Of a DNA stretch of 24,414 bases, positions 3,760 to 16,101 are shown in pieces. Made by a program: the position numbers and the translations under genes. The DNA comes from a virus (Duplodnaviria > Caudoviricetes): positions 1 to 24,414 of IMG/VR virus record IMGVR_UViG_3300017785_002713; one strand, written 5' to 3'. Position 1 is the first letter of the stretch, and every line of letters starts with the position of its first letter. A model generated the notes under the pieces. That model saw nothing but the letters and a program-made list of their open reading frames with translations. It was not told the DNA's origin and did no database searches.

Positions 3760-3890
3760 AGCCCAGTTCAGAGAAAGAAAGTTACAAACAGATGACCACT
3801 GGCATCTATGGGTTTCCCCTCTTTCTTTGCTCTGAGCAAGGCTCTTAATAATCAGTGGTGGTAATATTTCAATCGAATATGTTTGTACTT
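3760..3890 (-). promoter_or_regulatory. Structured 5' leader of the replication operon
   Basis: Nested stems 3766-3773/3830-3837, 3774-3781/3821-3828 and 3790-3794/3803-3807; loop ACCACTG complementary to CAGTGGT at 3853-3859; TACAAACA 3783-3790 complementary to TGTTTGTA 3880-3887. Confidence 0.55.
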
Positions 3891-3903
3891 ATCCGATGTC
3901 TTT

Positions 3904-3933
3904 ATTATAATTTATAAATCACCACTAATGCAA
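3904..3933 (-). promoter_or_regulatory. Leftward sigma70 promoter for the replication operon
   Basis: Minus strand TTGCAT-18 nt-TATAAT. Confidence 0.65.
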
Positions 3934-3995: not shown

Positions 3996-4071
3996 GAAAA
4001 TAGTCCTAGACAAATATTAGATTTAGGATTAACTTACGGCATTTTCTCTATACATTCATCGTAAGTGGTGT

Positions 4072-4770
4072 ATGGAGAAGACGCATAATAAAATGCAAGA
4101 ATTAACAAAAGAAGATAGATTAAAACTGTTTATAGAAAGATACCCAGAGCAATACACAAAGTCTTTAGGTGTATATAAACTTAAACCTGAAAAAATAAAA
4201 GACATATATGAAAGAGCTATAAGATTAAAGGAATATAGAAAACAGTATATTAGACAATATAGAATAAAAAACAAAGATAAACTTGAAGAAAAAAGAAAAT
4301 ATTTACAATCTTTGAAACCAAAAAAAATAAAAAAAATACGAGATGAGCTTTACTATGTTGAAAAAAGGAAAAAAAATAACGAAAGAGATAGATTAAAACG
4401 TTTAAATAATCCAGAAAAATATAGAATATTATCTCGTAATAAGTATTGGAGAAATAGAGAAAAACATAAGTTAAAAATTAACAGATATTTACATGACAAT
4501 AAAGAGTCTGTAAAAAAACAACAAAAAAACTATAGGTTTACTTTTCCTGAAAAAACAAAAGCCCGTTATTTATATTCTGTAGAAATAAAAAAGGGTAATG
4601 TAAAAAATTTGCCATGCGAGAATTGTGGAACTTTAAAAACACATGCTCACCATGATGACTATAATTTTCCTTTAAAAGTAAGATACTTATGTTCAAAACA
4701 CCATCATGAATTTCATAGGGAACATACCTATGACACAGAAACTTTCACTTATTTAAAAAAGATTATATAA
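4072..4770 (+). CDS. HNH-type endonuclease with long basic helical N-terminus
   Basis: C-terminal CENCG...HAHHDDY..PLKVRYLCSKHHHEFH; very K/R-rich N-terminal region. Start may be 4093. Confidence 0.75.
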   Translation: MEKTHNKMQELTKEDRLKLFIERYPEQYTKSLGVYKLKPEKIKDIYERAIRLKEYRKQYIRQYRIKNKDKLEEKRKYLQSLKPKKIKKIRDELYYVEKRKKNNERDRLKRLNNPEKYRILSRNKYWRNREKHKLKINRYLHDNKESVKKQQKNYRFTFPEKTKARYLYSVEIKKGNVKNLPCENCGTLKTHAHHDDYNFPLKVRYLCSKHHHEFHREHTYDTETFTYLKKII

Positions 4771-5980: not shown

Positions 5981-6834
5981 TGGCAGAAAAAGTAGTTAGA
6001 CCAGAAGATATAAAAATACCAGTTGAGTGTTTTTTATATCAGACAGGAGGACAACAGATACAAAATGAAGGTGGGGAGCATTATCAGATAGAGTCTTTAG
6101 ATTTTAGAGATGATTTTAAAATGTATATAAAAGGTGCAGAGTTTCCATTTGAGGGATATGTTACTAATGATATGCTATGGTCTACTAATCAAGCTAAATC
6201 AGTATTCATTGAAGGAGTAAAGTTATTAACAAAACCATTATTCATAATACCTACTGTTTTAACTCTTATATTCTTTAGAAATCACCTAATACAACCTTTT
6301 ACATGGTTAGGACATAGAATAATGTCGCCTATAATGTTAAAGGATAAACACATATCAAAGTTTGCAAGAGAGCTACAATACATGATATTTGAGTTTCTAA
6401 GACACTTGATACCAGAGGATAAAGCAGATAAGGTGTCAGAGATATTTTGTAGGATAATTGATAATGATGACGCTTATAAGCAAAGGTTAAAAGACTTATT
6501 TTCAATGACAACTAAGAAGAAACTATTAAAACCTAAAGAATTATCACGATTGGTTAATATAATGGATAAAAGGCAAATGAATGGTACATGTTCATGGGTT
6601 AAGAAAGTAAAAGCGGTTGTATTGTTATTAAGATTATCACTACTCATACCAAGTGCTAGAAAGGGCTATAAATCAGCAGTACAGAATATCAATATGGATA
6701 ACTTAATATTACATTGGGAGGATATGTACTGGTCAGTATATAAAAAGGATTATGACTTTGGAGGAATGACCATTGAACAGAGAAAACAGTTAGCAAAGGA
6801 TAAAGGTTGGAAATATCCAAATCAAATGGTATAA
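5980..6834 (+). CDS. Hypothetical protein
   Basis: 284-aa ORF with TAATG overlap; one hydrophobic stretch (LFIIPTVLTLIFF); no family recognised. Confidence 0.7.
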   Translation: MAEKVVRPEDIKIPVECFLYQTGGQQIQNEGGEHYQIESLDFRDDFKMYIKGAEFPFEGYVTNDMLWSTNQAKSVFIEGVKLLTKPLFIIPTVLTLIFFRNHLIQPFTWLGHRIMSPIMLKDKHISKFARELQYMIFEFLRHLIPEDKADKVSEIFCRIIDNDDAYKQRLKDLFSMTTKKKLLKPKELSRLVNIMDKRQMNGTCSWVKKVKAVVLLLRLSLLIPSARKGYKSAVQNINMDNLILHWEDMYWSVYKKDYDFGGMTIEQRKQLAKDKGWKYPNQMV

Positions 6835-6841
6835 TAATATT

Positions 6842-6928
6842 ATGGTATGGAAATTATTAAAAAAAATATTTAATTTTACAGATGAAGAAATCCAAGACAT
6901 TAAAAAAAGATTTGAAGAATACGTTTGA
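6842..6928 (+). CDS. 28-aa peptide, possibly leaderless
   Basis: MVWKLLKKIFNFTDEEIQDIKKRFEEYV; extended -10 TGGTATAAT at 6827-6835 ends 6 nt before the ATG. Confidence 0.4.
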   Translation: MVWKLLKKIFNFTDEEIQDIKKRFEEYV

Positions 6929-6929
6929 G

Positions 6930-7022
6930 ATGAGTCGTAAAGAAACGATTGTACAGTACACAAAATTAATATTTGGATTATATGGATTAATATTACTTAC
7001 CATAATAGCTATAAAAATATGA
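6930..7022 (+). CDS. Small single-pass membrane peptide
   Basis: MSRKETIVQYTKLIFGLYGLILLTIIAIKI; ATGA overlap with the 7019 ORF; alternative in-frame ATG at 6882. Confidence 0.45.
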   Translation: MSRKETIVQYTKLIFGLYGLILLTIIAIKI

Positions 7023-7252
7023 TAATATATAACAAAGAGAAGAAAAAAGGATTTAGAGGTTATAAGTATATAGCTAAAGCATATATTGATGAGCAAGGTA
7101 ATGAGATAACAAAAGATACAAAGGAAGGTACTGATATGATTGAGATAGTTTGTGATATAATATCAACAGATAAAGAAGAAGATGTTTTAAATAAGTTAAA
7201 ACAAAATATTATTAATAAAATAAAAGAATATAAACCTATATGGAAAGGATAG
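7019..7252 (+). CDS. Hypothetical protein
   Basis: 77-aa ORF overlapping the terS start. Confidence 0.6.
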   Translation: MIIYNKEKKKGFRGYKYIAKAYIDEQGNEITKDTKEGTDMIEIVCDIISTDKEEDVLNKLKQNIINKIKEYKPIWKG

Positions 7253-7668
7253 GTAGACCAACAAAATATACTCCCGAGTTAGCGAGTAAAATATGTAAGG
7301 AAATAGCTTTAGGTAAATCACTTAGAGCTGTTTGTCGTGCAGATGATATGCCAGATATATCAACTATTTATGATTGGTTTCCTTTATATGAAGACTTTAC
7401 CAAACAATACGAGAAAGCTTGTAAGGATAGAGCAGAAGCACAGTATGAAGATTTGAATGAAATCAATGAAGAAGCTATACAATATGCAAAAACATCTGAC
7501 TTTAATGTTCAGGCTGTCATGACTGCATACAAAATGAAATCTGATAATATGAAATGGTCTATGTCTAAAATGATACCAAAGAAATATGGAGATAAACTTG
7601 ATGTAGTATCAGACGGAGAAAAATTACAAAGCTCAACTCTATTAGTAAAATTTGATGAAAGAAAATAA
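7240..7668 (+). CDS. terS: Terminase small subunit (Sf6 gp1-like HTH)
   Basis: GRPTKYTPELASKICKEIALGKSLRAVC...MPDISTIYDW and PKKYGDK; immediately upstream of terL. Confidence 0.88.
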   Translation: MERIGRPTKYTPELASKICKEIALGKSLRAVCRADDMPDISTIYDWFPLYEDFTKQYEKACKDRAEAQYEDLNEINEEAIQYAKTSDFNVQAVMTAYKMKSDNMKWSMSKMIPKKYGDKLDVVSDGEKLQSSTLLVKFDERK

Positions 7669-8893
7669 CACTGTTGTTGTAAATATACCTATAGAATACA
7701 AACCATTGTTTGATGACAACTGGCGTGAGGCTGCGATATGGGGAGGTCGTTTCTCATTAAAATCTCATACAGTTGCACGTTATCTTTTAATACAAGCACG
7801 TATGGGGCAAAAACGTATTGGTTGTTTTCGTGAGTTTCAAAACTCTATATCAGAATCATCACACCAACTATTATCTGATTTGATAAATGAATATGGCTTG
7901 ACTGACTTTGAGGTTACTGACAAATCCATTGTAAACAAAATTACAGGTTCAGACTTTCTATTCAAAGGATTACATCACAATGAACAATCAATAAAATCTA
8001 TTGAGGGTATTGATATTGCATGGATTGAGGAGGCACAAACTATTTCAGAGAAGTCTATTGAAATTTTAACACCTACAGTTAGAAAGGAAGGGTCAAAACT
8101 TATTTACACATACAACAGATTGACTGAAACCGACCCAGTACACAGACGTTTAGTTATTGAAGGTAGACCTAATACATTGTTACTTAATTTGAACTATGAC
8201 ATTGCATTGAAATATGGTTACATGCCAGAGGTTATAAGACTTGAAATGGAAGATGATAGACAGAACAGACCATCACTGTATAAACATAAATGGTTAGGTG
8301 AACCACAATCACATGAGCTTAAAATATTTAAAGATTGGAATTTCATTGATGACTTACCACATGAAGCAAGACTTGAATGTTATGGACTAGACTTTGGATA
8401 TACTAATGACCCAACTGCTATTACAGCTATTTACAAATACAATGGGGGTTTTATACTTGATGAGATTACATATTCAAAAGGATTGACTAATGAACGTATT
8501 GCAAAGATATTATTAAACTTACCTCAAGCACTTGTTATGGCTGATAGTGCAGAGCCTAAGAGTATTGATGAGATACGTGTATATGGTGTAAACATATTAC
8601 CAACTGAAAAGGGTGCAGGTTCAGTCTTACAAGGTATACAGTATGTTCAAAATCAAAAGATATCAGTTACAAAGCGTTCACAGAACTTAACAATGGAATA
8701 TCATAACTACATTTGGAAAAGGGACAAGGAGAATAGGATTACAAATATACCAGAGCAAGGTTATGACCATTTGATTGATTCAATTAGGTACGGTTTCAAC
8801 GCAATCAAACCAAGAAGCGATATCACAGAATCAAGACTATCAGAACAATTTAATAAAAATACTCATAGACAAAACTTAAATTCGACAAAATAA
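7652..8893 (+). CDS. terL: Terminase large subunit, PBSX/SPP1-like family
   Basis: Walker A GGRFSLKSH, Walker B IAWIEEAQ, nuclease motifs YGLDFGYTNDPTA, ADSAEPKSI and DHLIDSIRY. Confidence 0.95.
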   Translation: MMKENNTVVVNIPIEYKPLFDDNWREAAIWGGRFSLKSHTVARYLLIQARMGQKRIGCFREFQNSISESSHQLLSDLINEYGLTDFEVTDKSIVNKITGSDFLFKGLHHNEQSIKSIEGIDIAWIEEAQTISEKSIEILTPTVRKEGSKLIYTYNRLTETDPVHRRLVIEGRPNTLLLNLNYDIALKYGYMPEVIRLEMEDDRQNRPSLYKHKWLGEPQSHELKIFKDWNFIDDLPHEARLECYGLDFGYTNDPTAITAIYKYNGGFILDEITYSKGLTNERIAKILLNLPQALVMADSAEPKSIDEIRVYGVNILPTEKGAGSVLQGIQYVQNQKISVTKRSQNLTMEYHNYIWKRDKENRITNIPEQGYDHLIDSIRYGFNAIKPRSDITESRLSEQFNKNTHRQNLNSTK

Positions 8894-8910
8894 AAGTAAT
8901 AAGATATAAT
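8882..8910 (+). promoter_or_regulatory. Sigma70-type promoter for head genes
   Basis: TCGACA-17 nt-TATAAT at the end of terL. Confidence 0.55.
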
Positions 8911-8941
8911 TAAGTTATAATAATTAATTTAAATAAATAAT

Positions 8942-9262
8942 ATGGCAAACATAGCAACAAATGTATTTCAACAGGATGAATCAGGTAACGTGCTTACATC
9001 AGCAGTTCGTTTCTTGAATACAACATCATCAGGGTTGGTAAAGACAGGAAGTGGGTCAGTAAGAGGTGTGATTGTAAACTCTCATACATCAGGAACAGTT
9101 AAGTTCTCAAATGGAACAACAGCTGTAAATGATATAATGGGTACTTTTACTTTCCCTGCAGCAGGTTCTCAAGTTATTAACTTTGGTTCAGGGGTTGTAT
9201 TTAGTACAGGACTATTTGTAACAGTAGGAGGTACTGCTAACATAACAGTTTTATATAATTAA
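8942..9262 (+). CDS. Small beta-rich probable virion protein
   Basis: 106 aa, G/T/S/V-rich alternating strands; located between terL and portal. Confidence 0.55.
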   Translation: MANIATNVFQQDESGNVLTSAVRFLNTTSSGLVKTGSGSVRGVIVNSHTSGTVKFSNGTTAVNDIMGTFTFPAAGSQVINFGSGVVFSTGLFVTVGGTANITVLYN

Positions 9263-9264
9263 TA

Positions 9265-9286
9265 AAAATTCGGTGGGACGAATTTT
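9265..9286 (+). promoter_or_regulatory. GGTGGG-motif hairpin abutting the portal start codon
   Basis: AAAATTCG-GTGGGA-CGAATTTT; ATG 2 nt downstream. Confidence 0.6.
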
Positions 9287-9288
9287 AA

Positions 9289-11067
9289 ATGCAATCAATA
9301 ACACAACTCGTTAAAGAAAGAGAAAACTCATATATCAATGGAGTAGCAAACATATCACAATATGTGGATTTTTCTCAATATGAAACTATTTCAACAATAG
9401 AAGCTTATTTAAACTCTAAACATATATCAGGTTCAACAGACGCTTTAGGTAGAGAGAAACCTTTTTTCAACATAGTAACTGCTGTATCAAATATTTGGAT
9501 GAGAGCAACAGATATTGATAGAAAGAACATAAGATTTCGAGCTACTAAACAAGCAGAGGTTGTACCAGCATTTCTAGCAAACTGCATATTACAAAACTGG
9601 ATGAAAGAAGTTAACTTTGGTTCATTCTTAAATGATTGGGGTAGAACACTTGCTCGTTATGGTAGTGCTGTAACAAAGTTTGTAGAGAAAGATGGAATGT
9701 TGAACATTAATGTTACACCTTGGAATAAGCTAATAACAGACCAGATAGATTTTGAAAACAATGTTAAGATATTTAAGTTCTTTTTAACACCAGCACAGCT
9801 TAGAACAAACCCTATATACAATCAAGAAGTTGTAAAAGGATTATTGGAATCAGTACAAACAAGACAAACAATAGGTAATCAAACTGTTGATACACTAGCA
9901 GACTATATAGAATTGTATGAGGTACAAGGTAATCTTCCTTTATCAATGCTTACAGAGAATGAAAAAGATGATGATACTTATGTAGACCAAATACATATCA
10001 TTTCATTTGTTGGTGACCAAGAGGACTTTACTTTATACAGTGGTAAGATAAAAAAACAACAATATCACAAAGCTGATTTAATAAAAGAAGATGGAAGAGC
10101 TTTGGGTATTGGAGCTGTTGAGCATTTATTTCAAGCACAATGGATGTCAAACCATTCAGTTAAACTTTATAAAGACCAAATGGAACTTATCTCAAAGGTA
10201 ATATTTCAAACTGCTGATAAGAATTATGCAGGGCGTAATGCTTTAACTGCTATTGAGAACGGAGATATCATGATTCATGATGGGAACTCACCTTTGACAC
10301 AAGTAAATAATCAAGGACATGACCTTACATCAATCACAAATTTCATGGTGCAATGGCAGACACAGGCTAAAGAGATAACATCAACTCCTGATGCTATATC
10401 AGGAGCTACAATGCCATCAGGAACTGCATATAGACAGGTTGCAATACTAAATCAAGAATCACATTCATTATTTGAATTGATGACAGAGAATAAAGGATTA
10501 GCACTTGAGGAAATGTTTAGAGAGTGGATTATACCTTACATAAGAAAACAATTAAATAATAAAGATGAAATAGTAGCCATGTTAGATGACGCTGGTATTA
10601 AACAACTTGATACATGGTATATAACAGGAACTGCTAACAAGAAAGTTAATCAGATGATTATTGATAGAGCTTTGGAAGGTGAAATAACAACTCGTGAACA
10701 ACAAGCAGAGATGACAACAGAAGAATCGGCTAATCTTCAAGGTGAACTATCAATGATGGGTAATCAACGCTTTATTAAACCAAGTGAACTAGACGACACA
10801 ACTTGGAAAGATATATTAGATATTAATTGGGACGCCATAGAAGTTGAAATAACTAATGAGCAATCAGACAAAGAAGCTGTGATGACTACATTGACTACTG
10901 TTATGCAAACAGTTGCAGGTAATCCAGCAATACTTCAAGACCCTAATATGAAAATGCTATTTAATAAGATATTAGAGATGACAGGACAAGTTTCAACTAT
11001 TGAGTTATCTACTCAACCTCAAGCTACACCTATGCAACCACAACAAGCACCCCAAGCTATGACATAG
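9289..11067 (+). CDS. Portal protein (podovirus/P22-like)
   Basis: 592 aa after terL; helical; PFFNIV, LARYGSAVTK and TAYRQVAILNQ segments; Q/P-rich C-terminus. Assigned on size, synteny and loose motifs. Confidence 0.8.
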   Translation: MQSITQLVKERENSYINGVANISQYVDFSQYETISTIEAYLNSKHISGSTDALGREKPFFNIVTAVSNIWMRATDIDRKNIRFRATKQAEVVPAFLANCILQNWMKEVNFGSFLNDWGRTLARYGSAVTKFVEKDGMLNINVTPWNKLITDQIDFENNVKIFKFFLTPAQLRTNPIYNQEVVKGLLESVQTRQTIGNQTVDTLADYIELYEVQGNLPLSMLTENEKDDDTYVDQIHIISFVGDQEDFTLYSGKIKKQQYHKADLIKEDGRALGIGAVEHLFQAQWMSNHSVKLYKDQMELISKVIFQTADKNYAGRNALTAIENGDIMIHDGNSPLTQVNNQGHDLTSITNFMVQWQTQAKEITSTPDAISGATMPSGTAYRQVAILNQESHSLFELMTENKGLALEEMFREWIIPYIRKQLNNKDEIVAMLDDAGIKQLDTWYITGTANKKVNQMIIDRALEGEITTREQQAEMTTEESANLQGELSMMGNQRFIKPSELDDTTWKDILDINWDAIEVEITNEQSDKEAVMTTLTTVMQTVAGNPAILQDPNMKMLFNKILEMTGQVSTIELSTQPQATPMQPQQAPQAMT

Positions 11068-11117
11068 CTTTAATATGGTGGGGTATTATTAATTAACGTC
11101 CGAAGTTTACTTTGGAC
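11054..11117 (+). promoter_or_regulatory. Cluster of three inverted repeats after the portal gene, including a GGTGGG-loop hairpin
   Basis: AAGCTATG-A-CATAGCTT (11054-11070), TAATA-TGGTGGGG-TATTA (11071-11088), GTCCGAAG-TTTA-CTTTGGAC (11098-11117). Confidence 0.55.
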
Positions 11118-11130
11118 ATAAAATCAAAAT

Positions 11131-11685
11131 ATGTTTCAAACAGAAAAAGAACAGGCAGAGTTTATGCAAGCAGAATATGATTTGTTTGCACCAACTTTCA
11201 AAGAAAACAAACCTATGCTTAAGGTATTGCGAAAAGTAATACTAGGTATAGACATAACACCAGCTGAAAAAGAATTATTTAAACTAATTCCAACTGCAAT
11301 AATAGATAAGATTGAAACTCTATTATTACCAAAAGTAACTGGTGATGAAGATTTGCATGGAGTAAACGACTTTTGGTTTCAGTTTAACTTAAAAGAAAGA
11401 ACAGAGTATCAAGTACAGAAAGATATAGAATATCTACCTCTTATACTTGATTTCTTTGGAAGTTCAGTATCAAGATTAAAAGGAGAAAAAACAAACCTTA
11501 CAATATCAGATGTTGAATATTCAAAAACTAAAAGTAAAGAGGAAAATATAACTAATGTTATTGCTAGAAATATAATACTAGCAACTACGGAGGGACTTAT
11601 CACTACAATTTATCAGAAAGCAAACAGTAAACCTTTAACAGAGGAAGATATAAAATTAAAAACAAAAGCAAATAGTTCAAAATAA
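11131..11685 (+). CDS. Hypothetical protein in the head module
   Basis: 184-aa ORF between portal and scaffold. Confidence 0.7.
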   Translation: MFQTEKEQAEFMQAEYDLFAPTFKENKPMLKVLRKVILGIDITPAEKELFKLIPTAIIDKIETLLLPKVTGDEDLHGVNDFWFQFNLKERTEYQVQKDIEYLPLILDFFGSSVSRLKGEKTNLTISDVEYSKTKSKEENITNVIARNIILATTEGLITTIYQKANSKPLTEEDIKLKTKANSSK

Positions 11686-11686
11686 T

Positions 11687-11715
11687 TTGACGTTATTTTC
11701 AACTAGGTGTATAAT
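11687..11715 (+). promoter_or_regulatory. Strong sigma70 promoter for the scaffold/capsid operon
   Basis: TTGACG-17 nt-TATAAT, near consensus. Confidence 0.8.
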
Positions 11716-11769
11716 TATAAGTAATGAAGAAGGTATCTAACCTGCTTAAAAAAAATAGATTAAAAAAAT

Positions 11770-12300
11770 ATGCAAGATGATAACAACAGTATTGAGGAAA
11801 CTTTAACTCAAGATACAGATACAGAACTCGAAATAGACTTAGATGACGAAATCGAGAACGACCAAGTCGATTGGAAAGCAGAAGCTGAAAAGAATAAAAA
11901 GGCTTATGAAGACCAAAAGAGAAGAGCAGAAATAGCTGAAAGTAAAAAGACAGTTAAATCTCCAACTCAAACAAGCACTAACACAACCTTAACAGTTAAA
12001 GACGGATTCGCACTTGCAAAAGCAAATGTTAATGATGAAGATATTGATGATGTGCTGGAATATGCCAACTTCAAGAAAATACCAGTAGCAGACGCTTTGA
12101 AAAGTTCAGTTGTTAAAAGTATGTTGGCAGAAAAAGAGGAGTTTAGAACTTCCCAATCTGTTTCAACAACTGCTAATGCTAGACGTGCTAGTCCAAAGAT
12201 AACTGATGATACAATCCTCGACAATGCCAGAAAAGGTAAACTTGATGACAGTGATGAAGGAATAGAAAGGTTGTTTAAGGCAAGAATGGGTCTTAAATAA
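11770..12300 (+). CDS. Capsid scaffolding protein (probable)
   Basis: Acidic N-terminus, coiled coil (DWKAEAEKNKKAYEDQKRRAEIAE), helical C-terminus; directly upstream of the capsid gene. Confidence 0.7.
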   Translation: MQDDNNSIEETLTQDTDTELEIDLDDEIENDQVDWKAEAEKNKKAYEDQKRRAEIAESKKTVKSPTQTSTNTTLTVKDGFALAKANVNDEDIDDVLEYANFKKIPVADALKSSVVKSMLAEKEEFRTSQSVSTTANARRASPKITDDTILDNARKGKLDDSDEGIERLFKARMGLK

Positions 12301-12316
12301 AAACTCGGTGGGGTTT
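12301..12316 (+). promoter_or_regulatory. GGTGGG-motif hairpin in the capsid gene leader
   Basis: AAAC-TCGGTGGG-GTTT; ACTCGGTGGGG (12303-12313) is the exact reverse complement of 13237-13247. Confidence 0.6.
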
Positions 12317-12343
12317 ATAAAATAATTAAAATTAAAAAAACCC

Positions 12344-13198
12344 ATGAACACAATATCGACCTTCACATACAGACAAAAGTATTTTAAAAATACTCTACAG
12401 CAATTACTAAGACGTGCCTTAATCGCAGAAGCAATCTGTGATGTAGACAACTCTGACGTAAAAAGAATTGAAAACCCATACGGTTCTCAACCGACAGCAG
12501 CAGTTACAGGAATTACTGGAACTTATGCAGTTTCAACTTACACAACAACTGACGATACACTGACAGTTGACCAAGAAGTTAAAATCGCAGAACATATCTT
12601 TGACTTTGAGAAAGTTCTTACTTCATTTGATATGTATGCAAACAGAATGAATGAAATGATGTACGCTGTTAAGGATAAAATTGACTACTTTGTAATCAAT
12701 AACCTTACAGAAGATGCAACAGGAGCTTATACAACAGCAGCAGGTGGATTTAACACAGTTGCGAACATTAACAAAATCATAGCAGATTTGAGTGCATTGG
12801 TATCAGGTTACTTCGATGTTTACAAAGGACTATTCCTTGTAATCGAAAACACAGAAGTATCAGGAATACAACAAGCTCAAATGACAAACGGTTTCAGTTT
12901 TGCTGATTCAGCATTGAATAACGGTTTCGGTACTAAATACGGTGGTGTAGATATTTACGTAACTAGAGCTGGAACTTTCGCTGATGCAACAATCGGAACA
13001 AAAACAGTTACAAACCTAGGACACAGAGTATTCGGTGTTAAAAAGTCTGCAACTTACGCATCTCCAAGAGATATAAGATATGAAGAGAAGCCAGTATCAG
13101 GTAAAACTGGTATGGAACTACTAGTATTTGGTTACATAGGATTTAAACTATGGTATTCAAAACTAGCACTAGTTGTTGATATTACTTTAACAGCATAA
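12344..13198 (+). CDS. Major capsid protein (HK97 fold, probable)
   Basis: 284 aa after the scaffold; DDTLTVDQ, GTKYGGVDIYVT and a C-terminal ELLVFGYIGFKLW...VVDITL pattern typical of coat proteins. Confidence 0.8.
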   Translation: MNTISTFTYRQKYFKNTLQQLLRRALIAEAICDVDNSDVKRIENPYGSQPTAAVTGITGTYAVSTYTTTDDTLTVDQEVKIAEHIFDFEKVLTSFDMYANRMNEMMYAVKDKIDYFVINNLTEDATGAYTTAAGGFNTVANINKIIADLSALVSGYFDVYKGLFLVIENTEVSGIQQAQMTNGFSFADSALNNGFGTKYGGVDIYVTRAGTFADATIGTKTVTNLGHRVFGVKKSATYASPRDIRYEEKPVSGKTGMELLVFGYIGFKLWYSKLALVVDITLTA

Positions 13199-13202
13199 AT
13201 AT

Positions 13203-13272
13203 AATCCCCTTGTGTGGGGATTTGGGTAATGTTTCTCCCCACCGAGTCCATTATCCAAACCCTCACATAAGG
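13203..13272 (+). ncRNA. Long hairpin presenting a CCCCACCGAG loop; candidate regulatory RNA element
   Basis: 13208-13231 pairs with 13249-13272 at 23 of 24 positions including three G-U pairs; 17-nt loop TTTCTCCCCACCGAGTC. Confidence 0.65.
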
Positions 13273-13283
13273 AAAACAATATT

Positions 13284-13436
13284 ATGGCAATAAAGAAAAC
13301 ATCAATCGAAGAGGAGGAAATTACACCAGTTGTAATCAACTCTGACTTTGCAAAATTATTAGAAATCTACAAGGTTCAAAATCCTGTTAAGTATGAACTT
13401 AAAAAGGAGGAACTTTTAAAAAAATTAAACAAATAA
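13284..13436 (+). CDS. 50-aa hypothetical protein
   Basis: Manual translation MAIKKTSIEEEEITPVVINSDFAKLLEIYKVQNPVKYELKKEELLKKLNK; 1-nt gap to the next ATG. Confidence 0.65.
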   Translation: MAIKKTSIEEEEITPVVINSDFAKLLEIYKVQNPVKYELKKEELLKKLNK

Positions 13437-13437
13437 T

Positions 13438-13650
13438 ATGGCAGTATCATCAGCATCAAACACAATTCTTGAATCAGGTGCAGTTATTGGTAGTATATCT
13501 ATCAATACAGGTACAGCAGCTCCAACATTAAGTGCAGCCAAAGGTTCATTATTTATAAGACTAGATACTGGAGCTTCAACTACAGCAACTAGACTATACG
13601 TAAACACTACAGGTTCAACTATTTGGTCTGCGATAACCACAGCTTCATAA
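13438..13650 (+). CDS. Small virion protein (decoration/head-fibre-like)
   Basis: GTAAPTLSAAKGSLFIRLDTG...RLYVNTTGSTIW resembles the P.....G.L......LY......W fibre module. Confidence 0.55.
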   Translation: MAVSSASNTILESGAVIGSISINTGTAAPTLSAAKGSLFIRLDTGASTTATRLYVNTTGSTIWSAITTAS

Positions 13651-13655
13651 AGAAT

Positions 13656-13709
13656 AACTAACCTTTATTGGTTGGTTTCAGGGCTATCCTTGAAATCAGT
13701 CCGTAATAA
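13656..13709 (+). promoter_or_regulatory. Intergenic stem-loop with an alternative overlapping hairpin
   Basis: 14-bp stem 13670-13683/13688-13701 with four G-U pairs and no U-tract; alternative AACTAACC/GGTTGGTT (13656-13663/13670-13677). Confidence 0.55.
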
Positions 13710-13723
13710 TATAAAAAAACATC

Positions 13724-14455
13724 ATGGCATTACCATTTAACGATACATCATCATCAAAATCAGGTATTCTTCAAGAATGCGAAATCACCTTATTCGGTGA
13801 TGAGGGTTATGGTTCTATAACTAGTGATACAAACAGACTTTCTCAATTTACCAATAGAGCAAACAGAGCATTGGATAGATTTGTATTCCTTGCAATGACA
13901 GCAGATGAGAAATGGCAATTTGATGATAACAACTACACAGACCTTGCTATTGCAGTTACAAACATAGTTACAACACAAAGAGATTATCAATTTGCACTAG
14001 ACCATTTAGAAATAGAGAGAGTATTGATATTAAGACCTGATAATACTTGGGTAGAAATAAAACCATTATCACAAACAGAAAATCAAAATACTTATTACGA
14101 GAATAATACTGGTAATGACGGAATACCAACAAGATATGAGAAAAGAGGTTCAACTATCTTTTTAGATGTTGTGCCTAATTATTCTGTAACAAATGGACTT
14201 AAAATATACTTCTCAAGAGGTGCTTCATACTTTGCTACAACTGATACAACTAAAGCACCAGGTTTTGCATCTAACTTTCATAAGTTTGTACCACTACACA
14301 TGAAAGCTAATTATGCTATAGACAGACAAATGCCTATAGCTAAAAACCTATTTGATTTACTTATGTCAGAAGAACAGTCTATCAGAGATTTCTATTCAAA
14401 TAGAGCAAAAGATGTTAGACCAAAATTATCCGTTTTAGCACAAAATAATAAATAA
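13724..14455 (+). CDS. Head-tail adaptor (tail tubular protein A-like), probable
   Basis: 243 aa; helical N-terminus, beta middle (GIPTRYEK...IFLDVVP...LKIYF), helical end; first tail-module position. Confidence 0.6.
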   Translation: MALPFNDTSSSKSGILQECEITLFGDEGYGSITSDTNRLSQFTNRANRALDRFVFLAMTADEKWQFDDNNYTDLAIAVTNIVTTQRDYQFALDHLEIERVLILRPDNTWVEIKPLSQTENQNTYYENNTGNDGIPTRYEKRGSTIFLDVVPNYSVTNGLKIYFSRGASYFATTDTTKAPGFASNFHKFVPLHMKANYAIDRQMPIAKNLFDLLMSEEQSIRDFYSNRAKDVRPKLSVLAQNNK

Positions 14456-14456
14456 T

Positions 14457-14696
14457 ATGACAACTTGGACTAATGAAAACAAAGAAACAACAACATGGAC
14501 TGGTGAAAATAAAACAGTCATGACTGATACATGGGAAAATTTAGAGAAGCCTGGAATAATAAATGATGGTGGTTGGGATTATGAAGAACAAGATTTAGAT
14601 TATGACCAGATATTAGATTTAGACACAGGTAACACAGTTTTTTATGAAGGATTAGGAGTATCAACAGATTGGACTAATTTAAATAAAACAGTATAA
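14457..14696 (+). CDS. Small acidic protein with W-x-N/G-x-N/E-K repeats
   Basis: WTNENK, WTGENK, WENLEK and WTNLNK in 79 aa. Confidence 0.65.
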   Translation: MTTWTNENKETTTWTGENKTVMTDTWENLEKPGIINDGGWDYEEQDLDYDQILDLDTGNTVFYEGLGVSTDWTNLNKTV

Positions 14697-14700
14697 ATAT

Positions 14701-16101
14701 ATGGCAACAAACTTTCCAACATCATTAGATTCATTATCTAACCCAATAGGAACAGACAAGGTGGCAAATGCCGACCCTTTGTTAAAACATGCTACACAAC
14801 ACTCAAACGCTAATGATGCTATAGAGGCTCTAGAGGCTAAAGTAGGTGCTAATGGTTCAGCAGTTACAACATCACATGATTATAAACTAGGTGAAGTTAC
14901 AGGTTCTGATAAAGCAGTATCAAAGACAGCTACACAAACTTTAACTAACAAGACTTTAACAAGTCCAACTATAACAAACAAGACTTCAACGGGTACTGAT
15001 AATGGGACAGAAACACTTGTTAATAAAACTTTAACAAGTCCAACACTTACAACACCAACTATAGCTTCTTTTGTAAATGCACAACATGACCATTTAGATG
15101 CAGATGATGGAGGTCAATTAACAGAAGGGGCATTAAACTTGGCTGATGTTACTACAAACGATGTTTCTATAACAAAACATGGATTTGTACCAAAAGCACC
15201 AAACAATACATCTACATATTTAAGAGGCGATGCTACATGGGCATCAATAGGTGGAACAGGTAAATTTGGAGGTACAGGTGCAGACGGAGCTTTAACTCAA
15301 TCAGTAGGAGCTTTTAATATTGATTTAGGAGGTGCTCAAGTATTTGTTAAAAATTACACATCTATTTCAATTACAGGAACTGGATATATAACTTTTACAA
15401 ATAAACATGTTAATGGAACTCAAGTAATTTTTAAATCACAAGGAAATGTAACTATAACATCATCAGCAACGAGAGCTATTGATTTAATAGGGTTAGGTGG
15501 AAATGGTGGTGCTGATAAGACTGGTGGTGGTGCACCATTTCCAATTAATAGTGTTGGTGGTTCAGGAGCAAGTGTTGCAAATGATGGAGCTGGTGGAGGT
15601 AGTAGTACTGTTATATACGGATTACCAAATCCTGGTCAAAATACTTATGGAATATTAGGTCTTATTGAAGGTGGTAAAAATAGTGGTACTGATTATACAA
15701 ATGCAAAAGGAAAAGGTATATTAAGTGGTTTTAATTGTATTGTATCAAAAGCGTTACCATTACAGTGTGGTGCAGGTGGGTCAAGTGCTTATGCAGCAGC
15801 TTCATTACAAGGTCGTGCAGGAGGTGCAGGTGGGGGTGCTTTATATATAGAATGTAATGGTGCATATTCTGTTAGTGGAACATTAGATGCTAGTGGTGTT
15901 GCAGGTACAAATGCTACAGGAGGTGATAGGTCAGGGCATGGTGGAGGAGGAGGAACAATAATTGCATTATATACAACACTTACATCAGATACAGGGACTT
16001 ATAACGTAGCAGGTGGAGCAGGAGGCACTGGTGGTGCAGCATCAGGTTCAGCAGGAGGTAACGGTTATCAATATAGAGGTCTTAACACAGAATTTCAATA
16101 A
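14701..16101 (+). CDS. Glycine-rich tail fibre / receptor-binding-like protein
   Basis: MATNFPTSLD start, TL(T/V)NKTLTSPT repeats (DNA repeat 14953-14969 = 15028-15044), YLRGDATW module, GGAGGG-rich C-terminal domain. Confidence 0.7.
   Translation: MATNFPTSLDSLSNPIGTDKVANADPLLKHATQHSNANDAIEALEAKVGANGSAVTTSHDYKLGEVTGSDKAVSKTATQTLTNKTLTSPTITNKTSTGTDNGTETLVNKTLTSPTLTTPTIASFVNAQHDHLDADDGGQLTEGALNLADVTTNDVSITKHGFVPKAPNNTSTYLRGDATWASIGGTGKFGGTGADGALTQSVGAFNIDLGGAQVFVKNYTSISITGTGYITFTNKHVNGTQVIFKSQGNVTITSSATRAIDLIGLGGNGGADKTGGGAPFPINSVGGSGASVANDGAGGGSSTVIYGLPNPGQNTYGILGLIEGGKNSGTDYTNAKGKGILSGFNCIVSKALPLQCGAGGSSAYAAASLQGRAGGAGGGALYIECNGAYSVSGTLDASGVAGTNATGGDRSGHGGGGGTIIALYTTLTSDTGTYNVAGGAGGTGGAASGSAGGNGYQYRGLNTEFQ

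Follow-up and report, generated by a model that had tools for sequence, protein, structure and literature searches.

The window analysed here is the whole of a 24.4-kb phage fragment (IMG/VR record IMGVR_UViG_3300017785_002713, 24,414 nucleotides), and the subject is a long RNA hairpin that follows its major capsid gene and carries in the apical loop a short guide sequence complementary to sites in the leaders of the capsid gene and other head genes. Comparisons among related phages indicate that this RNA-RNA pairing between loop and leaders is very probably real. We consider it moderately likely that the loop, located in the 3' untranslated region (UTR) of the capsid message, activates head-gene translation by strand displacement with positive feedback, as a natural toehold-like switch. 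The timing and proportion of scaffold, portal and capsid synthesis in tailed phages are usually explained by promoters and proteins; here, one short loop from the capsid message addresses several head genes in more than 100 uncultured phage lineages.

Co-variation of the post-capsid loop with head-gene leaders

The three leader motifs and the complementary loop reported in the initial annotation lie at the positions given in Table 1, and the motif-to-ATG distances of 11, 47 and 30 nucleotides (nt) for the portal, 184-amino-acid (aa) and capsid genes were confirmed. Scored against every leader of the window, the loop had its three top partners in the leaders of the capsid (score 30), portal (25) and 184-aa (21) genes; the net pairing energies in the window were -10.9, -5.4 and -9.5. 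The 11-bp pairing described for the capsid leader was recovered, while the 8 bp described for the portal leader should read 10 nt with one G-U pair. The motif GGTGGG occurs 13 times in the window compared with 2.85 ± 1.63 expected (0/100 shuffles reached 13), several of these copies being inside coding sequence. None of 200 shuffled sequences was as stable as the long hairpin; its stem had been given as 24 bp with three G-U pairs, of which the G-U count was correct and the length was 23 bp (12 + 11, with one 1x1 mismatch and 3 weak apical pairs).

Related loci were collected by capsid-alignment scans, giving 171 loci plus 3 found earlier; 7 loci without a standard start were removed, and clustering at 90% DNA identity resulted in 106 non-redundant clusters with enough flanking sequence. 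A long hairpin (at least 20 nested pairs, at most 190 nt from the capsid stop) was found in 98 of the 106 clusters, the script having chosen a different hairpin in a few of these loci. Most clusters outside the 98 yielded the element when searched with a profile, including three loci in which an inserted 205-210-aa gene moves the hairpin about 620 nt downstream. The stems have a median of 27 nested pairs and a median folding z of -7.9 (93 loci) on a poorly conserved sequence (42% column identity in alignment A2). Among 2,762 stem pairs there were 371 G-U pairs compared with only 45 A-C mismatches, an excess that marks the element as plus-strand RNA. Owing to the poor quality of the plain alignment, just 3 pairs were captured in the covariance model R1, which served as a sequence profile only. 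A short hairpin close to the capsid stop, which was missed in the initial annotation, has at least 6 pairs and competes with the outer part of the long stem in 89/98 loci.

The loop follows the leader when both change. The energy of pairing between each loop and its own capsid leader was on average -17.5 kcal/mol compared with -14.05 ± 0.27 kcal/mol for permuted partners, the best of 10,000 permutations giving -15.05 kcal/mol. With loop and leader anchored independently by position weight matrix, whereby 17 of the 106 loci were dropped, 89 were kept and several loops were mis-registered (the accompanying tree being a quick version), Watson-Crick pairs at the four variable positions numbered 61, 78, 73 and 60, compared with 40.5, 59.0, 61.3 and 42.3 on average after shuffling, and none of 2,000 shuffles reached the observed counts. 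Changes on both sides of the loop/site core were seen in separate clades (CCGTC/GACGG, CCGCC/GGCGG, CCACT/AGTGG, CCATC/GATGG, CTGCC/GGCAG and TCACCTAT/ATAGGTGA) and in additional loci (CCCAGCG/CGCTGGG and CCATGTGG/CCACATGG); natural compensatory changes are unusually rich in this system. As a control for kinship, 93 loci were arranged in 46 nearest-neighbour pairs and the own partner was compared with the swapped one: the own partner won in 28 cases and lost in 5, with 13 ties (28/33 informative pairs, p = 7×10−5). A replicate set of 36 additional loci contained 35 with a stem of at least 18 pairs and 27 with a matching site. Similarly, when 8 loci were chosen by the leader pattern alone (7 of them within the replicate set), the hairpin was present downstream in 7, with E < 1×10−7 in six and E = 0.06 in one, the eighth locus being too short. 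The proposal that one RNA loop pairs with several head-gene leaders is thereby upheld at the level of sequence, motif and loop being co-conserved with compensatory changes on both sides in many clades.

This co-variation also bears on the suggestion, made initially as an alternative, that the motif is a DNA site for a protein, used in both orientations, with the hairpins incidental. A phage-specific protein would likewise shift all sites of one genome together. However, the inverted copy always occupies the apex of a long stem that has the G-U bias described above, mismatches within sites favour G-U (40/81 compared with 26 expected; A-C 39/88 compared with 33 expected) and the core changes go far beyond the tolerance of a protein site, which makes this alternative highly improbable.

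Target-site counts rest on 92 loci with an assigned loop. Sites were found in 77/92 capsid leaders, 18/70 portal leaders, 8/28 leaders of the 106-aa gene and 26/74 leaders of the gene after the portal, and they were nearly absent from scaffold (1/86) and large terminase (1/19) leaders; shuffled leaders gave sites at about 1%. In 14 whole or near-whole genomes and the window, strong leader sites occurred mainly in the head module and some outside it. Matches of equal strength in coding sequences of the same genomes, both strands included, numbered 133 and are probably largely due to chance. The capsid site lies 14-73 nt from the start, with the duplex mostly ending 19-30 nt upstream; its centre is a median of 8 nt downstream of the scaffold stop, to which it is placed more tightly (interquartile range 6.5-14.5 nt) than to the start (28-43 nt). 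Portal-type sites track the start rather than the upstream stop, and the position of the site varies most among relatives at the gene after the portal (the 184-aa gene). Tandem duplicated capsid-leader sites were observed in L100, L138, L140, L159, L161, L236, L251, L257, L268 and L286.

The motif had been held not to be a Shine-Dalgarno (SD) sequence on account of its variable spacing, an argument that stands for the capsid sites and fails for portal-type sites, which lie at SD distance (7-12 nt). The conclusion itself was supported on other grounds, as the site follows the phage's own loop rather than a constant and no enrichment of SD words was seen genome-wide: 7.0% of 356 phage genes compared with 8.1% in the control, 0/21 genes in the window, and 7.4% of 54 genes in one Paceibacterota host compared with 7.4% in its control. 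Leaders were A-rich in the phages and in the Paceibacterota host examined.

Predicted opening of the leaders and rival readings

The motif was initially placed in small leader hairpins, with display in a loop. This description applies to the portal and 184-aa leaders and does not apply to the capsid leader. There the site tends to be unpaired in its 5' part, while its 3' part usually contributes the 5' arm of a hairpin, H1. The 3' arm of H1 ends 0-8 nt from the start, and the types of pairs vary while pairing persists. Portal leaders have a hairpin that stops about 2 nt short of the AUG, with the site extending over its 5' arm and loop. The individual leader hairpins in the window are weak (z = -2.2, -1.6 and -0.9). 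H1 is weak in this genome and predicted to be strong in most relatives, and an inhibitory fold over the initiation region is likewise predicted in most of them. The effect of occupying the site was estimated by forbidding it to pair and computing the cost of opening positions -15 to +12, with control leaders blocked at the same position. The predicted opening cost decreased from 8.9 to 3.9 kcal/mol in 65 capsid leaders and from 4.8 to 4.5 kcal/mol in 285 control leaders, with a gain above 2 kcal in 58/65 capsid leaders compared with 43/285 controls. For 20 portal leaders the predicted cost decreased from 4.6 to 1.8.

These predictions are compatible with a scheme in which the loop would kiss the exposed part of each site and displace the leader hairpin predicted over the start region. 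If the host initiates on A-rich leaders free of structure, such hairpins would keep capsid and portal synthesis low by default and the scaffold gene, having no site, would be translated freely; ribosomes finishing at the scaffold stop, near the site, might give the first leak of capsid protein. Given that the loop would be made only by transcripts running through the capsid gene, its binding would yield a switch-like positive feedback that turns on capsid and portal after scaffold. The loop would probably reach its own capsid leader in cis and portal-type leaders in trans, possibly after the stem has been cut by the host RNase III, whereupon the short alternative hairpin would cap the capsid message. 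Such cutting and re-capping is plausible, judging from the stems: the median of 27 nested pairs provides the about two turns of duplex that an RNase III substrate needs, and the enzyme is encoded in 40/41 genomes of the family to which the host of one relative (L174) belongs.

Sigma-70-like promoters were seen repeatedly ahead of the scaffold gene and of the 106-aa or portal gene (Table 1). The one ahead of the scaffold gene would drive scaffold, capsid and hairpin, and no such promoter was found in capsid leaders (0/91). A candidate promoter of the hairpin itself (13176-13205, 11/12 sigma-70 match) was dismissed, being conserved in 1/92 loci. With no conserved promoter for the hairpin and none before the capsid gene, the hairpin would be produced as the 3' end of that gene's message, and the lack of its own conserved promoter fits a processed or cis-acting element. 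No plus-strand terminator-like site was detected across 6800-14800 and no U runs follow the long or the short hairpin. A readthrough signal after the capsid gene was ruled out, as a second in-frame stop follows in the window.

Several observations weigh against activation by unmasking. The capsid leader of the window itself gains almost nothing by one measure (2.7 to 2.6 kcal/mol), and by a strict clearance measure the capsid median increases merely from 3 to 4.5 nt, scaffold leaders without a site also having a median clearance of 3 nt. In leaders with a second hairpin, H2, opening of H1 is predicted to leave the start still covered, and all these energies ignore the topological limits of a loop. 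Duplexes at the portal and 106-aa genes end 7-12 nt from the AUG, which is inside the normal footprint of the 30S subunit, and could block initiation instead. Sites of the gene after the portal lie a median of 50 nt from the start, often within the portal reading frame. Finally, sites at two or more genes were present in only 34/70 complete head modules and 7/70 had no site at the threshold.

The capsid start itself is unusual. In 27 of 149 clusters the capsid gene has no AUG at the aligned start, the alignment alone giving 9 GUG, 6 UUG and 12 near-cognate codons. Apparent ATA, ACG, ATT or AGG starts were seen in L031, L045, L066, L077, L158, L174, L234, L250, L278, L280, L284 and L292, and an apparent ATC start in L142. 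The median distance from the start to the nearest hairpin was 3 nt for AUG genes and 8 nt for non-AUG genes (p = 3×10−4, uncorrected for kinship). A weak default start of the most abundant protein, AUG or not, calls for an activator. HNH/NUMOD3 genes are inserted in the capsid leader at L142:2650-3470 and L031:6350-7010 and in L045 and L061; in L142 and L031, inverted repeats of about 28 bp lie on either side of the insert (-49 and -47 kcal/mol) and would loop it out like an intervening sequence of an mRNA leader. Non-AUG starts and looped-out inserts fit a positive element, exceed simple unmasking and keep alive a model in which the pairing positions ribosomes.

According to that model the kiss tethers the capsid 3' end and its terminating ribosomes beside the starts of head genes, with reinitiation in a closed loop, or the SD/anti-SD duplex is replaced by a helix 7-10 nt upstream of the start on ribosomes without anti-SD. 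Portal-type duplexes and H2 hairpins alike end about 7-12 nt before the start, 12/149 capsid genes lack AUG, GUG and UUG at the aligned start, the looped-out inserts of L142 and L031 keep the site near the start, and the hairpin remains at a stop codon despite insertions. The model also agrees with the anti-SD missing from a subgroup of Parcubacteria, as described in PMC9297842, which reports it in only 48% of Parcubacteria. Arguing in the other direction, no conserved ribosome-binding sequence was seen outside the loop in alignment A2, stop proximity may merely reflect compact genomes, two of the four leader insertions have no strong flanking repeat, and no host 16S 3' end was found in the genomes scanned (5 with the Rfam model and 61 by pattern). 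We regard positioning as unlikely, and the related idea that the capsid 3' loop replaces SD recognition where ribosomes have lost the anti-SD, as a phage-private address, as doubtful. If it were true, a closed message would put a helix or a recycled ribosome precisely at head-gene starts, and this precision would let AUA, ACG and AUU start the major capsid protein.

The same pairing might instead repress as the loop accumulates, damping first the portal, of which few copies are needed, and finally the capsid, which would give negative feedback on head stoichiometry. The 7-12 nt spacing at the portal and 106-aa genes suits such an effect, and there are precedents in the repression of icaR by 3'-to-5' pairing, as outlined in PMC3868564, and in the repression by distant anti-SD-like 8-mers in B. 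subtilis, as outlined in PMC12697547. In both of these cases an SD is covered, whereas none is used here. Moreover, the capsid duplex lies mostly beyond the ribosome footprint and competes with a start-proximal hairpin, and the site is best conserved at the gene that needs most protein, so we consider repression rather unlikely. It is quite improbable that the pairing acts on RNA fate, by guiding or blocking nuclease cuts just past upstream stops or by altering termination like the P4 CI RNA, and so sets message levels. The tighter placement of the capsid site relative to the scaffold stop, the clustering of sites near the portal 3' end and the RNase III-like long stems would suit this reading, but duplexes of 8-12 bp are short for RNase III, no U-tract terminators lie behind the sites and portal-type sites follow the start and not the upstream stop. 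Activation by strand displacement is the reading that we retain, at the moderate confidence given above.

Genes, host and further elements

The plus strand of the window carries, in order, the small and large terminase genes, the 106-aa gene, the portal gene, the 184-aa gene, the probable scaffold gene and the major capsid gene (Table 1). The portal protein had no Pfam and no PHROG match, the structure prediction for the 184-aa protein was unusable (pLDDT 38), and the capsid protein gave, besides its PHROG match, a weak match to T7-like capsids (E = 0.016). The capsid protein has 2,810 relatives in the protein collection and none were found among 50,697 deposited phages.

Table 1. Coordinates of the features in the window
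Feature	Position	Strand	Remarks
Sigma-70-like promoter (11/12)	8882..8910	+	Ahead of 106-aa gene and portal; score at least 10 in 39% of 28 and 29% of 70 relatives
106-aa gene preceding portal	8942..9262	+	Own leader without site here; site in 8/28 relatives
Portal-leader hairpin	9265..9286	+	Ends 2 nt before ATG; target site 9268-9277 covers 5' arm and loop; motif TCGGTGGG at 9270-9277
Portal protein, 592 aa	9289..11067	+	Target gene; feature scores 0.96-0.98 to portal clusters; gene order
Leader of 184-aa gene	11071..11117	+	Motif/site TGGTGGGG at 11076-11083 in weak hairpin; second hairpin 11098-11117 ends 13 nt before ATG
184-aa protein	11131..11685	+	Target gene; no family match
Sigma-70-like promoter (11/12)	11687..11715	+	Ahead of scaffold gene; score at least 10 in 29% of 85 relatives
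Probable scaffolding protein, 176 aa	11770..12300	+	Identity from position and acidic composition; leader without site
Capsid-leader target site ACTCGGTGGGG	12303..12313	+	11-bp loop match; 3 nt past scaffold stop
Capsid-leader hairpin H1	12311..12343	+	3' half of site pairs with six bases adjoining ATG
Major capsid protein, 284 aa	12344..13198	+	Main target gene and source transcript of guide; phrog_267, E = 9×10−9
Short alternative hairpin	13203..13222	+	Begins 5 nt past capsid stop; -11.0 kcal/mol; excludes outer long stem
Post-capsid long hairpin	13208..13272	+	Guide carrier; flexible apex of about 17 nt; -35.7 kcal/mol, z = -5.5
Guide (antisense) sequence CCCCACCGAGT	13237..13247	+	Within apical loop; co-varies with leader sites

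The relative L174 is a prophage within a contig of 356 kb that its record assigns to Candidatus Paceibacterota, with housekeeping genes on either side (gene identities read from translations). Records of other relatives carry the labels Saccharibacteria (three), Peribacteria (one) and others (six, for which mis-binning is possible). The host of the phage in the window is likely to belong to the Patescibacteria, and the element may offer a handle on gene control in cells of this type that do not use SD initiation.

A gene of 175-210 aa with Cys motifs sits between the capsid stop and the hairpin in L061:7916-8533, L091:2587-3213, L162:7864-8496 and L138:4111-4635, with no Pfam match for the three that were tested, and in L159 a short tandem repeat array separates the two. 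Two capsid-like genes with Ser/Pro-rich tails lie in tandem in L001:1550-3479, a locus without guide loop and without leader site.

Other folded regions were observed in the window. A third hairpin with an alternative short or long build lies at 13655-13705 on the plus strand, downstream of a 70-aa gene, which hints at a module of general use in this phage for processing or end protection. On the minus strand, a strongly folded intergenic RNA (395-610, -73 kcal/mol, z = -7.3) behind the ERF gene consists of a long hairpin (600-536), a short competing hairpin at the stop and then a branched stem, in which GGTGGGGG (about 523-516) pairs with CCCCACCA (about 443-436); this arrangement is not conserved as such in L176. 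If unfolded, either strand could pair with the head-gene system. The post-ERF hairpin was considered as a second guide system on the early strand given its similar build, and was rejected, as no leader scored above 18 with it and a close relative carries another loop. Hairpins and short complementary G/C motifs occur in the divergent region ahead of the replication gene (3761-3930 and 4026-4096), among them a loop CAGTGGT (minus strand, about 3800) that matches ACCACTG about 50 nt upstream.

Comparison with known systems

The element belongs to no catalogued Rfam family; in construction it resembles a 3'-UTR/5'-UTR pairing, and in its proposed action IsrK or a toehold switch. In line with the initial view that this is not a described system, Rfam 15 gave no match at E ≤ 5 in the window or in 9 related loci, and a further scan gave only generic hairpin matches at 10-19 bits, compared with gathering thresholds of 35-94. 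A literature search found no description of this capsid-tail element. The loop motifs were absent from the three supplements searched of PMC10690425, the remaining files of which might hold the hairpin as an unannotated candidate.

No Rfam match indicated homology in sequence and structure to the P4 CI or P1 C4 RNA. These RNAs repress, via termination or a block of translation, for immunity and are substrates of RNase P. As described in parts of PMC4825925 and PMC5499578, the CI RNA of phage P4 and the C4 RNA of P1/P7 resemble the present element in being antisense RNAs from a longer phage transcript whose exposed loops pair with sites on the same transcript. The element differs from both in its virion-gene targets, its single long stem and the predicted activation. 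In plant RNA viruses, the loop of a 3' hairpin in cap-independent translation enhancers kisses the 5' leader and favours translation, with recruitment of eukaryotic initiation factors. Those systems operate on RNA genomes, and no factor-binding domain is evident here. In icaR of S. aureus a C-rich motif in the 3'-UTR pairs with the leader of the same message, which hides the SD, causes repression and generates a site for RNase III, according to the account in PMC3868564. The present site, by contrast, is no SD, varies freely together with the loop and is common to several genes.

Closest in proposed action is IsrK of the Gifsy-1 prophage, which is reported in PMC4825925, as far as that source covers it, to bind a translationally inactive message in trans and expose its ribosome-binding region, being a phage RNA from the same transcription unit as its target. 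IsrK originates at the 5' end by termination and has a single target leading to an antiterminator (PMC4825925, same account), whereas the present guide lies 3' of the capsid gene, uses a loop of 8-12 nt and has several head-gene targets and no SD sequences. Antisense activators of the IsrK and DsrA type pair with the inhibitory strand of their target leader; here the site overlaps the 5' arm of H1 and co-varies with the loop. If the loop is activating, these phages offer a natural toehold-type switch that comes with a ready collection of orthogonal guide/target pairs. Synthetic toehold switches and loop-initiated activators, as presented in parts of PMC10132225, share with it an unpaired 5' extension, the invasion of a start-hiding hairpin and a free trigger sequence, and the element differs from them in being natural, in having a toehold of about 4-6 nt (from pair profiles) instead of 12, in its looped trigger and in a start that lies beside the stem.

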